In this document: positions 19,990 through 24,085 of the stretch, piece by piece
Layout: every line of letters starts with the position of its first letter
Position numbering within the stretch: the first letter of the stretch is position 1
Assembly: GCA_034530875.2 (NCBI GenBank)
Contig: JAVRCJ020000052.1
Location: forward strand, 1 to 42,048
Length of the DNA stretch: 42,048 nt
Source of the DNA: Nostoc sp. DedSLP01
Lineage (GTDB): Bacteria > Cyanobacteriota > Cyanobacteriia > Cyanobacteriales > Nostocaceae
Direction: 5' to 3'
Notes under the pieces: generated by a model
What the model was told of the DNA's origin: nothing
Database searches by the model: none
The model's input: only the letters and a program-made list of their open reading frames with translations
Position numbers and translations under genes: made by a program

Positions 19990-20234
19990 ATATCAATATT
20001 GATATAGAAAAGCTGATTTTAGAGGGAATGCCGATTTCTCCAAGTCAGGCGCGGTTGTTGCAAGCAGAGGTGGAGAGTGAATTGGCGAAGTTGCTGGCTA
20101 ATGAGGGTTTACCAGACAACTTGCTCTCCGGTGGGGTAGTGCCTGGTGGTGCAATTCAAGTAAAGCCCGGAACTAATCCCGCCCAAATGGGGCGACAAAT
20201 AGCACAAGAAATATATCGAGGAATGAAACCATGA
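19986..20234 (+). CDS. Small eCIS-associated hypothetical protein (82 aa)
   Basis: ATGA overlaps at both ends. The INIDIEKLILEG...GRQIAQEIY pattern resembles the small gene usually following the eCIS ATPase. Confidence 0.8.
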   Translation: MNINIDIEKLILEGMPISPSQARLLQAEVESELAKLLANEGLPDNLLSGGVVPGGAIQVKPGTNPAQMGRQIAQEIYRGMKP

Positions 20235-21328
20235 CTAGTAAAAGAATTGCCCAAACAAATGGGCAGCAAAAAAGTGAGAAATCACAAGAAAGTGGAATTT
20301 TACAACGTGCTGCCGTGCGTTCTGTTGCGGATGCAGGGGTGCAATCAACAGAAGATAAAGAAGCACAGCCATTAAGTAATTTGGCTTTATCTAAAGACTT
20401 TAGCCGCGTGCCTATTAGCACAACAAAACCACAGCCGATTATGGCGAAGCTGATGATTGGGCCAGCGGGAGATAAATACGAACAGGAAGCTGATAGGGTA
20501 GCGGCGCAGGTGGTGCAGCGAATCAATGCACCTGCGTTTGTGCACTCAGGTAAAGATGAAACAGTTCAGCGACAGGAGATGGAGACAAAAAATAACGAAG
20601 CAAGACTGATGAGGTCGCCAATCTTACAGCGTAGGTCTAGTGATGGTGGGATGGCTGCTACACCAGACCTGGAAGCCTCCATCAACCGAGCCAGGGGTAG
20701 CGGACGACCGATGGAAAATAATGTCCGGAAACGGATGGAACAAGGGTTTGGGGCAGATTTCAGTGGAGTAAAGATTCACACGAATGCTCAAGCTAACCAG
20801 CTGAATCAATCAATCCAGGCTCGTGCTTTCACAACGGGACAAAATGTGTTCTTTCGACAGGGGGAATATAATCCTGGTAGTCAGGGAGGGCAGGAGTTGT
20901 TAGCGCATGAGTTGACGCATGTGGTGCAGCAGAATGGAGAAGGAAATGCCGTGCAGGGTAAATCATTTTGTTCGTCCCAAATACAACGGAATGGTGACGG
21001 CAGTGACCAAGAGCCAAGCGAGGGATCATTGCGACCGGCATTAGGAAAAGAATTGATGAGAACTATGTATGGCCCCAATTGGTTTGCTAAGGGTGTTTTT
21101 AAGGCGATGAATTTCGCAATGTATGTAGAAGGACAAGAATTAACAAAAGAGCATAACAATGTGTTAGAAGATTCTTTAATTAAAAATAAAAAGGGCGTAT
21201 TAGATACATTGATAGCTGAGAACCCTCACGTAATGAAATCAACCGGTAAAACCCCGATATACTTACTAGGAAAATATGCCGTACATAAGCCTCTCGAATA
21301 TTATTTGAAGAATCAAGAGAAGAAATAA
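20231..21328 (+). CDS. DUF4157 (eCIS core domain) effector with N-terminal leader and unknown C-terminal domain
   Basis: DKYEQEADRVA, FGADFSGVKIHT, ARAFTTGQNVFF and LLAHELTHVVQQ (HExxH at 20906-20920), followed by IQR and a ~112-aa unique tail. Confidence 0.92.
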   Translation: MTSKRIAQTNGQQKSEKSQESGILQRAAVRSVADAGVQSTEDKEAQPLSNLALSKDFSRVPISTTKPQPIMAKLMIGPAGDKYEQEADRVAAQVVQRINAPAFVHSGKDETVQRQEMETKNNEARLMRSPILQRRSSDGGMAATPDLEASINRARGSGRPMENNVRKRMEQGFGADFSGVKIHTNAQANQLNQSIQARAFTTGQNVFFRQGEYNPGSQGGQELLAHELTHVVQQNGEGNAVQGKSFCSSQIQRNGDGSDQEPSEGSLRPALGKELMRTMYGPNWFAKGVFKAMNFAMYVEGQELTKEHNNVLEDSLIKNKKGVLDTLIAENPHVMKSTGKTPIYLLGKYAVHKPLEYYLKNQEKK

Positions 21329-21527
21329 AAAAACAACCGCAAGGAGATAATACCGTTTAAACGTCAATTTACTTCTTACGCTGTTAAGTGACAAATAGGT
21401 TTGTTCTTAATTAGAGTGCGATCGCAGTCACTCTGCAAAAGTGTAATTTAACGTAAATTTGACAAAGCTAAAAAAGCGATGATGGTAAAGTTTTTCACAT
21501 TACATATCACTACAAATCATTAAGAGG

Positions 21528-21770
21528 ATGAAACAATTGAGTAATTTAGATAGAGTTTTAGAAGCGGCAATGGAGCTTCCTTTAGAGCAACAAGAAATGC
21601 TGGTAGAAATTATCAAAAACCGAATTATTGAAAGTCGGCGAGATGAAATTGCATCAGATGCAGCAGTTTCCATTGCTGAATTCCAAGCAGGTAGGTTCAA
21701 AGTCCAGACTGCTAGTGAAGTAATTCAAAAATTACGAGAATATATGACGATTTCAGAATCAGCATGTTGA
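21528..21770 (+). CDS. Orphan antitoxin-like (addiction module) protein, 80 aa
   Basis: LDRVLEAAMELPLEQQEMLVEII...RRDEIA...EFQAG resembles cyanobacterial antitoxins normally followed by a RelE/YafQ-type toxin. No such toxin ORF follows. Confidence 0.6.
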   Translation: MKQLSNLDRVLEAAMELPLEQQEMLVEIIKNRIIESRRDEIASDAAVSIAEFQAGRFKVQTASEVIQKLREYMTISESAC

Positions 21771-21943
21771 ACCCAGAATTCCCGCAATTTCACTTTGCTG
21801 ATTACGTGCATCCCGAAAGTTAGAAATTTGTGATAATCATAGCATTGATTGAGAGTCACGCCAGGGGAATAGGGCGATCGCAGTAGTTCTATAAGGTGCG
21901 TAACAGATTCTACAAAGACTTTTATTTCCTCACCAAAAAGCTG

Positions 21944-22183
21944 ATGTTAAACTTTATTCTCATCACTGGCGATCGCGCCATATTCAACCCCACATTTGGC
22001 AAAGCAATAGTTGTAGTGCGTCCTGGCATCTTAACCGGTACTGGCATACCAACAATTAACAAAAAGAAAATTTGCCTTTTTGGGGACGAGAAAAAAGTTA
22101 TTGTCCCTGGTTGTTCTTACACGAGTCCGCCAAATGTTACTCCCGGTACAGTGCGATCGCCCGTAGGTTGGGTTGAAGCATGA
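21944..22183 (+). pseudogene. Truncated duplicate (first 69 codons) of the Afp10-like spike-tip gene
   Basis: 21944-22151 is near-identical to 24325-24532. Similarity ends right before the HIP1 site at 22153-22160, and the frame stops at 22183. Confidence 0.9.
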
Positions 22184-22191
22184 AACCCAAC
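22163..22191. repeat. GTAG-type REP-like palindrome
   Basis: GTAG-GTTGGGTT-gaagcatga-AACCCAAC. Confidence 0.65.
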
Positions 22192-22273
22192 AACTCAAGA
22201 TTCAAACTTTCCTAAAACATTACGATTTACTTTAACTAAATGCCTTTCTTATAGTGACAGTCTTAAAAGTCAA

Positions 22274-22313
22274 GTGTTCGCTCATATATGAAAGTTGATG
22301 AGGGTGCGATCGC
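22274..22313. repeat. HIP1-24bp-HIP1 module, copy 1 (diverged)
   Basis: GTGTTCGC-tcatatatgaaagttgatgagggt-GCGATCGC, preceded by TCTTAAAAGTCAA as in copy 2. Confidence 0.7.
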
Positions 22314-22429
22314 TAATAGAGTATAAAACTGATTTTAAATGCGATCGTTCATTTGTAAAATAAGTCGAGTTTCATAACCTATCAATTGCCCAACAATCCA
22401 AGTTTTTTATTAACTTGAGGAATTTAAGG

Positions 22430-24085
22430 ATGGCCCATAAGAGAATTACACAATTTAATCAGCAGCGTAAAGGTGAGGCATCCCAAGAGAGTGGAATTTT
22501 ACAACGTACTGCCATTCGTTCGGTTTCGGATGCAGAGGTGCAATCAACAGATAAAGAAGCACAGCCATTAAGTAATTCGGCTTTTTCCAAAGACTTTAGC
22601 CGAGTGCCTATCAGCACAACTAAATCACAGTCGATTATTGGGAGTATAGTGCAGCAGTATAACCGTAACAACACGATTCAGCGTGCAGCACCCACCGGAC
22701 AACTAGTCCAAAGAACCAATAGTGAAAATGAAAATTCTTCTCAAACAGACACAATACAACGATTTCAAGCAAGTATTGGAGGCAACAACCTAAAAGAATG
22801 CAAAAAGAAGCTAGAAGAGCGGTTTCCAGACAACGGGCCATTGTTTAGTGATACCCAACTAGAGCAAATCAGATCGATGAGCAATGACGAATCGACAACG
22901 ACAATCAAGTGGCTCCAGGAAGTCGGAATAGGAAAATACCAAGAGGCACAAAAGTATTTGGAAAAAGAACCACCAAATTTCGAAGATTGGCTAAACCTAA
23001 CACTAGGCAAAAGACTTCTCATAACAACCTTAGCCTGGAATAAGGGAAGAGGAGACTCAAACAATTCGCCATCACCGGCCTATTCACTAGCACGTAAAAT
23101 GATGATAAAAAAAGGCGGTTTGAAGGAACAAGAACAAAAGTCACTAATAGAAGACGAGAACAAGGATATACGCAATTCATTTCTAAAAACATTTCAAACA
23201 GAGAAAAATGAAGAATTTGACGATAAACAAAATAATATGGCTATAGCAGCTAGTAATATCCTGACAAAAATATTTCTGATTCTCCAGTCCGGACTACAGA
23301 TATACAATAAACAAAAAAGTAAGCACATTGACTATAAAGATGGAGATGTTGCCAGAGCTCTAGCTCATGGGGGACGAGTTAATATCCGTATTCCAGCACT
23401 CCAGGAAGGCGAAAATCCTAAAGCTCTGATGGAATGGATTGGTATTACCAAGGAAGGAGAGTTAGCCGACACAGTTTTCAAGCGCAAGTTTGCAACCCAT
23501 GGGACAAAGATTACAAAAAATAAGGGAGATAAACGGGGAAAGTTTGAAGAAACAGGAGGAAGAATAGTTGCAGTGAAGAATTATCTAAAACCCAACGTAG
23601 AGCTTTTGGGGCAAAATCAAGCTGCTGGGGGTCTAGGTAATTTAGATATCAACGGAAATATAATTCTTGTAGATGGTGCCCACGGACATCTGTTTATTGG
23701 GTTTAATTCTCCAACCAAAGATAGGGATGGGTCATTACAAATCGGATTGGAAACCACGGCGCCTGGTGCAAATAGTTTAGTAGGATATGTACATAACTGG
23801 CGTTCAACGGAGAAGACTGCCAATCCCGAGTCAAGTTATCACGGACACAAGACGGATAAAATAGGCGAGGGTAAACTAAAGAACAACCAAAGATATATAG
23901 ATCTAAAGAGGTATGAGAAGGGAGAAGGTCAAAAGTGGCTTGATTATCTAAAAAAAGTAGAGGAAGATTGGAACGAAATTCTAAAAATAAACAAAGAGCA
24001 GGCATTTGAGGAACTCATTGGTAACAGAAAATATTTTGGATATGATAATGAGGGGAATCTAAAGCGCCAATCAGAGGAGTCGTAG
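22430..24085 (+). CDS. eCIS effector with shared N-terminal leader and Ntox11-like toxin domain, lacking DUF4157
   Basis: The first ~69 aa are homologous to ORF 20231. The C-terminal part has HGGR, RKFATH, HGHL, GLE and GYVH, matching the GxR, RxxxoH, GxE and GxxH motifs described for Ntox11. ATG at 22430; the ORF is open from TTG 22415. Confidence 0.78.
   Translation: MAHKRITQFNQQRKGEASQESGILQRTAIRSVSDAEVQSTDKEAQPLSNSAFSKDFSRVPISTTKSQSIIGSIVQQYNRNNTIQRAAPTGQLVQRTNSENENSSQTDTIQRFQASIGGNNLKECKKKLEERFPDNGPLFSDTQLEQIRSMSNDESTTTIKWLQEVGIGKYQEAQKYLEKEPPNFEDWLNLTLGKRLLITTLAWNKGRGDSNNSPSPAYSLARKMMIKKGGLKEQEQKSLIEDENKDIRNSFLKTFQTEKNEEFDDKQNNMAIAASNILTKIFLILQSGLQIYNKQKSKHIDYKDGDVARALAHGGRVNIRIPALQEGENPKALMEWIGITKEGELADTVFKRKFATHGTKITKNKGDKRGKFEETGGRIVAVKNYLKPNVELLGQNQAAGGLGNLDINGNIILVDGAHGHLFIGFNSPTKDRDGSLQIGLETTAPGANSLVGYVHNWRSTEKTANPESSYHGHKTDKIGEGKLKNNQRYIDLKRYEKGEGQKWLDYLKKVEEDWNEILKINKEQAFEELIGNRKYFGYDNEGNLKRQSEES

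Follow-up and report, generated by a model that had tools for sequence, protein, structure and literature searches.

A shared N-terminal leader on cargo with and without DUF4157, a likely loading sequence for one contractile injection system clade in Nostocaceae

The stretch of DNA analyzed here, referred to as the window, spans 42,048 nucleotides of Nostoc sp. DedSLP01 (contig JAVRCJ020000052.1) and holds a complete contractile injection system (CIS) cluster on one 42-kb contig. A Pfam scan recognized sheath, tube, baseplate, Pvc16, AAA+ ATPase, spike-tip, hub, spike, and baseplate-J proteins, and the named relatives of window proteins come from Nostoc and its kin. Between the ATPase gene and the full spike-tip gene lie two cargo genes, A (20231..21328, 365 amino acids) and B (22430..24085, 551 amino acids), both on the forward strand, as are all features of this interval described below. 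Protein A consists of a leader, a DUF4157 domain, and a C-terminal part of no named family; protein B consists of a closely similar leader, a linker, and a folded body of the Ntox11 type, with no DUF4157.

Residues 1-70 of A (20231..20440) and 1-69 of B (22430..22636) are identical at 53 of 70 positions with one gap in a global alignment, which scores 237 against a mean of -8 (standard deviation 10, maximum 35) in 1000 shuffles. Beyond the leader the two proteins are unrelated, scoring 49 against 41 ± 6 for shuffled sequences, so the close alignment followed by complete divergence described in the initial annotation holds. The DNA ranges quoted there, 20285-20440 and 22484-22636, match at 138 of 156 columns, and the true homology is longer, with 82% identity over 225 nucleotides (20218-20442 and 22417-22638), from the ribosome-binding site to codon 70. 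Also confirmed was the presence of DUF4157 in the first protein only, since PF13699 matches A and not B; the Ntox11 domain of B had not been named. An error of assembly was considered as the source of the tandem and rejected, because contigs of three sequencing runs, from which this DNA may stem, show A and B letter for letter, and one of them spans the truncated spike-tip copy, B, and the full spike tip.

The DUF4157 core of A, with its HExxH motif, occupies residues 160-237 (20708..20941; PF13699, 115.6 bits against a cut-off of 22), and its modeled fold is zincin-like, resembling the VgrG2b metallopeptidase 6h56 (Z 9.2, root-mean-square deviation 3.6, 98 aligned residues). Upstream lie residues 71-99 (20441..20527), which contain the YEQEAD motif and a helix at residues 82-99 that is absent from B and modeled with a pLDDT (predicted local distance difference test) score of ∼82. 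Two forms of DUF4157, in which the helix either precedes or follows the HExxH core, were seen across 20441-20527 and the relatives P0001-P0267: of 76 proteins of the HELTH form, 65 have the E-x-E-A-D helix solely upstream of the core, and of 50 proteins of the HEAWH form, 41 have it downstream. Judged from this sequence pattern, the domain in A would be circularly permuted, with residues 71-99 as the permuted last helix, and because such a permutation would place those residues within DUF4157, the leader would end near residue 70, precisely where B diverges. No report was found of circular permutation in DUF4157, of an HDFS motif associated with DUF4157, or of a conserved N-terminus of Nostoc contractile-injection effectors, in a literature search whose reach excluded most subscription papers and preprint supplements.

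A sequence search with the leader returned 81 longer proteins, and a profile search returned 125 representatives, of which 67 were new. With B included the set comprises 149 entries, or 141 once eight fragments are set aside; the DUF4157 scan covered 62 of the 67 new proteins, the five omitted being fragments. DUF4157 is kept by 128 of the 141 carriers and lacking in 13, five of which have toxin-like Pfam domains (Ntox11, PARP-like, deaminase, endonuclease, and EndoU); eight of the 13 show a clean join of leader to effector and five retain DUF4157 remnants. The leader precedes either form of DUF4157, inserted domains, or no DUF4157 at all, and nine proteins have an extra stretch between leader and DUF4157. 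The profile search proposed in the initial annotation accordingly yielded relatives with variable C-termini (134 sequences in 112 clusters), though no further carrier in the strain's own genome. Internal copies of the leader occur at residues 279-339 of P0001 and 274-323 of P0075, and mark fusions of whole cargo genes.

Across the family, the motifs SGILQR (residues 21-26) and DFSRVP (residues 56-61) stand on either side of an acidic, variable spacer. In A, box 1 with the SGILQR motif covers residues 21-30 (20291..20320) and box 2 with the DFSRVP motif residues 54-62 (20390..20416). The box starts are 31-32 residues apart in 104 of 117 proteins and 23-33 apart overall, and the arginine of box 1 is present in 76 of 76 N-terminal copies and gone from the internal copy of P0075, a single case. 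Ratios of nonsynonymous to synonymous substitution rates (dN/dS) among 30 leaders, from pairs that are not independent, were 0.49 for residues 1-20, 0.15 for 21-31, 0.67 for 32-52, and 0.21 for 53-68, and by this measure the leader appears to be under purifying selection that is strongest in the two boxes. In 61 of 64 proteins scanned with a matrix of box 2, the highest-scoring site outside the leader lies on the first strand of DUF4157, a likeness that may reflect an old duplication or a common binding motif. The leader is also predicted to be polar and disordered: pLDDT is below 50 over most of it in both models (low over most of residues 1-64 in A; below 50 for residues 1-97 in B), with high confidence for the DUF4157 of A and for B from residue 100, and the two leaders are 60-65% polar with grand averages of hydropathy of -0.75 and -0.84, the folded body of B being equally hydrophilic.

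The gene upstream of A and B encodes a Pvc15-type AAA+ ATPase of 660 amino acids (18007..19989, with AAA and WHD Pfam matches) after Pvc16, and this enzyme is the presumed loading motor. A gene for an 82-amino-acid protein (19986..20234) overlaps the stop codon of the ATPase gene at one end and the beginning of A at the other. In relatives the leader gene nearly always lies between a Pvc15-type ATPase and the spike tip, and of 28 genome loci, 26 have the ATPase upstream of it, the contigs of the other two being too short. The leader occurs in 23 of 127 genus genomes, the same 23 that have a strong match to the 82-amino-acid gene, making the latter a marker of the clade; 30 of 32 genus leader matches are within 2.5 kb of it, and in a sample of the phylum both are found in the same six of 401 genomes. 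Seven more genomes have weak or partial matches to the 82-amino-acid gene, two of them decayed or interrupted loci without the leader and the other five distant, comprising four ATPases 46-66% identical and one remnant. Cargo N-termini at the distant loci differ from the leader, but in most of them LQR and an HDFSR-like motif persist. At one locus the slot is empty and the leader gene lies 14.6 kb downstream beside a DUF6519-like gene (L060, L075), and a metagenome scan added two leader loci, both cut by contig ends.

The 82-amino-acid gene follows the ATPase in all these loci, distant ones included, and its product, which has no Pfam or NCBIfam match, is a candidate adaptor. A predicted complex of the ATPase, this protein, and the leader scored 0.00, and because the controls likewise did not fold the result is evidence neither way. 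In the ESM Atlas, the 82-amino-acid protein and the B leader matched unnamed clusters only, with one weak eCIS_core row at 0.83, and NCBIfam gave no match for A, B, or eight DUF4157-less relatives. Many loci other than the window have a gene for a 158-amino-acid protein between the 82-amino-acid gene and the cargo (L007:952-1428; L017:9389-9925), which may be called amidase-like by the look of its sequence only, and insertion elements and deletions disrupt this CIS in several relatives (L056:676-1884; L072; L073).

Residues 276-518 of B (23255..23983) match Ntox11 with an E-value of 1.9e-44 and 152.7 bits against a cut-off of 25, and B keeps 98 of the 106 positions conserved in 70 relatives. 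The family is toxic by prediction and, in the available text of its description, is listed as PVC-exported with cyanobacteria among the hosts (PMC3482391). The body of B appears to be an intact Ntox11 domain, with toxicity as a prediction; a fold search with its model gave no match at an E-value of 0.001, and sequence search identified no solved relative. Neither PF13699 nor a remnant of its helix was found in B, and among the matches listed 105 of 120 Ntox11 relatives lack DUF4157. No immunity-like gene lies downstream of B in the window.

Between A and B are an 80-amino-acid gene of no known family (21528..21770), with a homologue (41%) on contig C42, and a truncated copy of the spike-tip gene (21944..22183) that stops after ∼70 codons beside a GCGATCGC site at its break. 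The segment 21919-22151 is 95% identical to 24301-24532, at the full spike-tip gene (24325..24750, PF19267) that ends the cargo slot. The GCGATCGC octamer is presumably HIP1, which we take to be linked to recombination. The DNA upstream of B (22278..22429) is common to another second-position cargo gene; with the leader included, the stretch 22278-22638 shows 86% identity to the second of the L028 cargo genes and 82% to L038. B is flanked by repeat units with GCGATCGC sites (22247-22352 and 24133-24290), and many relatives have such units between cargo and spike tip. The leader-to-Ntox11 junction of B also occurs inside P0075, a longer DUF4157 protein that is 69% identical to B, and because of this shared junction the leader-Ntox11 unit without intervening DUF4157 predates this strain. 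Given that junction and the mostly DUF4157-less Ntox11 relatives, B does not look like a fresh wreck. It has a ribosome-binding site, an open frame of 551 codons, and both boxes, and would presumably be expressed. The gene probably arrived as a cassette through recombination anchored in the spike-tip gene.

Taken together, the 70-residue leader is likely to be the N-terminal cargo loading sequence of one CIS clade in Nostocaceae. The unfolded leader would be engaged by the neighboring AAA+ ATPase, probably at the two conserved boxes, and the ATPase would then unfold the protein behind the leader and feed it into the tube. Because the leader is a shared stretch of DNA as well, recombination could exchange the toxin domains that follow it, whether DUF4157 is present or not; B would be a product of such a swap that probably entered the locus ready-made and left the truncated spike-tip copy. 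The initial annotation proposed the leader rather than DUF4157 as the packaging address, and this part stands as the favored reading in that the leader is N-terminal, predicted to be disordered, built around two boxes, restricted to one CIS clade, and followed by either form of DUF4157 or none. It is also system-specific, as two other CIS in this genome and Nostoc CIS with ATPases of 46-66% identity have other N-termini. The idea is not new, because deletions in AlgoCIS already led to the same conclusion in the part of the preprint available (10.64898/2026.05.27.728243).

Several observations weigh against a loading function. Over its whole length the leader has a dN/dS of 0.39, equal to that of the linker (0.39) and far above those of DUF4157 (0.13) and the ATPase (0.08), again from pairs that are not independent, and comparisons of B with single relatives gave 0.22-1.00 on 67 codons, too noisy to indicate selection on B. 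The low pLDDT of the B leader stems from an alignment with almost no depth in this region. Linkage in one operon would by itself account for much of the co-occurrence without any recognition. The signals of PVC and Afp reportedly withstand mutation and function across species, so the conserved boxes may have a purpose besides loading. Finally, DUF4157 is kept by 128 of the 141 carriers and by the cargo of every one of the 26 complete single-gene slots.

The last point bears on a rather unlikely alternative, in which the leader is needed and not enough, and loading of DUF4157-less cargo depends on a DUF4157 protein that acts in trans, A chaperoning B, perhaps with box 2 pairing with or replacing the look-alike strand. 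The three two-gene slots (the window, L028, and L039) each pair one gene with and one without DUF4157, a pattern with a hypergeometric probability of 0.004 if the slots are independent, which kin are not (counts leave aside five cut or broken loci, two metagenome loci, and one displaced gene). A tandem with a second leader type on contig C39 combines full, partly deleted, and missing DUF4157, for 61 of 64 proteins the box 2 matrix scores highest on the DUF4157 strand, and a chaperone role in trans was proposed earlier, in the accessible text of PMC11297309. Nevertheless, the AlgoCIS preprint, as far as it is available, reports loading of DUF4157-less cargo in a strain devoid of other cargo genes (10.64898/2026.05.27.728243), two-gene slots number only three, genomic context was seen for just three of the 13 DUF4157-less proteins, and redundancy after duplication would look alike. 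A related and doubtful proposal is that the two boxes form a code, with a clade-specific part that sorts cargo among several CIS of one cell, this genome having three ATPases and at least three leader types, and with box 2 as a copy of a DUF4157 strand, by means of which a DUF4157 protein would escort cargo lacking DUF4157 in trans; if true, DUF4157 would gain a function, and the constant pairing of DUF4157-less genes with a DUF4157 neighbor in the contexts seen would be explained.

Alternatively, the shared stretch could be a mere trace of duplication or recombination, a DNA handle with a start region, and B a spare, unloaded cassette like the orphan cassettes of polymorphic toxins. The location of B after a damaged spike-tip copy and DNA rich in repeats, the DUF4157 remnants that deletions would leave in two other DUF4157-less genes (L028 and L039), the leader copies inside P0001 and P0075, and the recombination known for cargo genes (PMC3482391, text available in part) all fit this explanation. 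It is nonetheless unlikely, as the excess of synonymous changes over replacements, greatest in the two boxes, is a sign of selection at the protein level; B has kept its translation signal, its 551-codon frame, both boxes, and 98 of 106 conserved positions; and the box 1 arginine, found in every N-terminal copy, is missing from the internal one in P0075 (one case against 76). Less probable still is a role of the leader in cargo stability, timing, or anchoring within the producing cell, where the CIS itself may act, in place of an address for the tube. The best solved sheath matches are the Salmonella salamae and Streptomyces systems, not PVC or Afp, and PVC signal peptides are reported, in a source available in part, to affect payload stability; yet position and architecture match the lumen cargo of AlgoCIS, and a function in stability is compatible with loading.

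The closest known counterpart of a leader that loads cargo is AlgoCIS, for which the available text already states that a disordered N-terminal region, not DUF4157, directs loading: the N-terminal domain is required, DUF4157 is dispensable, the ATPase is essential, and cargos of one system are alike at the N-terminus (10.64898/2026.05.27.728243). Its cargos Cgo1 and Cgo2, with Alg15, resemble the Nostoc case in having a disordered, common N-terminal domain, an optional DUF4157, a variable C-terminus, and an AAA+ gene in the cluster (10.64898/2026.05.27.728243; PMC8894135). Both native AlgoCIS cargos have DUF4157, the loss being engineered, whereas in Nostoc the loss is natural, and its authors describe loading sequences as unconserved between systems, whereas the Nostoc boxes can be aligned across a clade, although the extended alignments of the preprint may show the same motifs. 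N-terminal loading signals used with Pvc15 or Afp15 are established for PVC and Afp, judging from the available parts of the sources (PMC11495950; 10.1101/2023.11.13.566157; PMC11297309), and like the Nostoc leader they are polar, low-confidence extensions on unrelated effectors, form alignable groups, and are linked to an ATPase. By contrast, those cargos lack DUF4157 altogether and are located after the operon, and their signals are 20-50 residues long and mutation-tolerant, a comparison made by description only. The PVC-metallopeptidase polymorphic toxins likewise swap toxin domains behind a constant N-terminal part, which, in the text available, is the peptidase (PMC3482391), whereas in Nostoc it is the leader and B has no peptidase.

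Cyanobacterial CIS cargo has also been proposed in Anabaena, where two DUF4157 proteins, Alr3311 and Alr3312, were detected by mass spectrometry and suggested to occupy the lumen of the thylakoid-anchored CIS, according to the accessible text (PMC8894136). Ranked by E-value against the window sheath, All3325 is tenth of 21, with Salmonella salamae and Streptomyces nearer, and the present CIS may belong to a lineage other than the thylakoid-anchored one. To the published picture are added the apparently permuted DUF4157 with the leader end it implies, the likeness of box 2 to a DUF4157 strand, the mixed two-gene slots, and a genome whose three injection systems differ in their leaders. Recognition of cargo by the CIS ATPase and the purpose of DUF4157 are called open questions in the available parts of two sources (PMC11297309; 10.64898/2026.05.27.728243), and the leader family offers an alignable signal, two mutable boxes, and a sharp boundary for defining packing rules, at a locus with natural cargo both with and without DUF4157. 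Its profile also catches about one in 11 carriers (13 of 141) missed by a DUF4157 search.

Use of the leader to find further effectors genome-wide, as suggested in the initial annotation, failed in this genome, where tblastn recovered A and B only, as did two leader profiles among 7690 open reading frames; within the genus, as noted, nearly all matches are near the 82-amino-acid gene. Mining yields nothing new here because the N-termini of two other systems escape the leader profiles. Besides the window ATPase there are two others that are Pvc15-like, at 44% and 49% identity, with their own sheaths and their own cargo genes whose N-termini differ, and the genome appears to encode three injection systems with different leaders, a direct setting for the study of ATPase-leader specificity. 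A second leader type is present in 94 of 127 genus genomes. Two additional CIS gene sets lie at C1:174800-197500, C46:5800-9500, and C57:33200-36500, one set being split over several contigs. At C39:19358-23598, three tandem cargo genes with the second leader family are divergent from a tube-baseplate cluster, one with full, one with missing, and one with partly deleted DUF4157. Stand-alone genes at C20:51309-52682, with DUF4157, and C4:381680-384019, without a PF13699 match, have an N-terminus that is longer and of the second leader type, and no CIS gene was found near either.

Elsewhere in the window, a promoter scan of 21300-24400 found 10 sites against 7.4 ± 2.9 expected by chance and no terminators, and was uninformative. 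A 1338-amino-acid protein without a Pfam match (12743-16759) contains internal repeats of 132 and 213 nucleotides, varies in length among relatives, and is the probable tape measure. Upstream of the sheath, 1577-9075 encodes a kinase-AAA-GAF protein and an AAA_35 protein.

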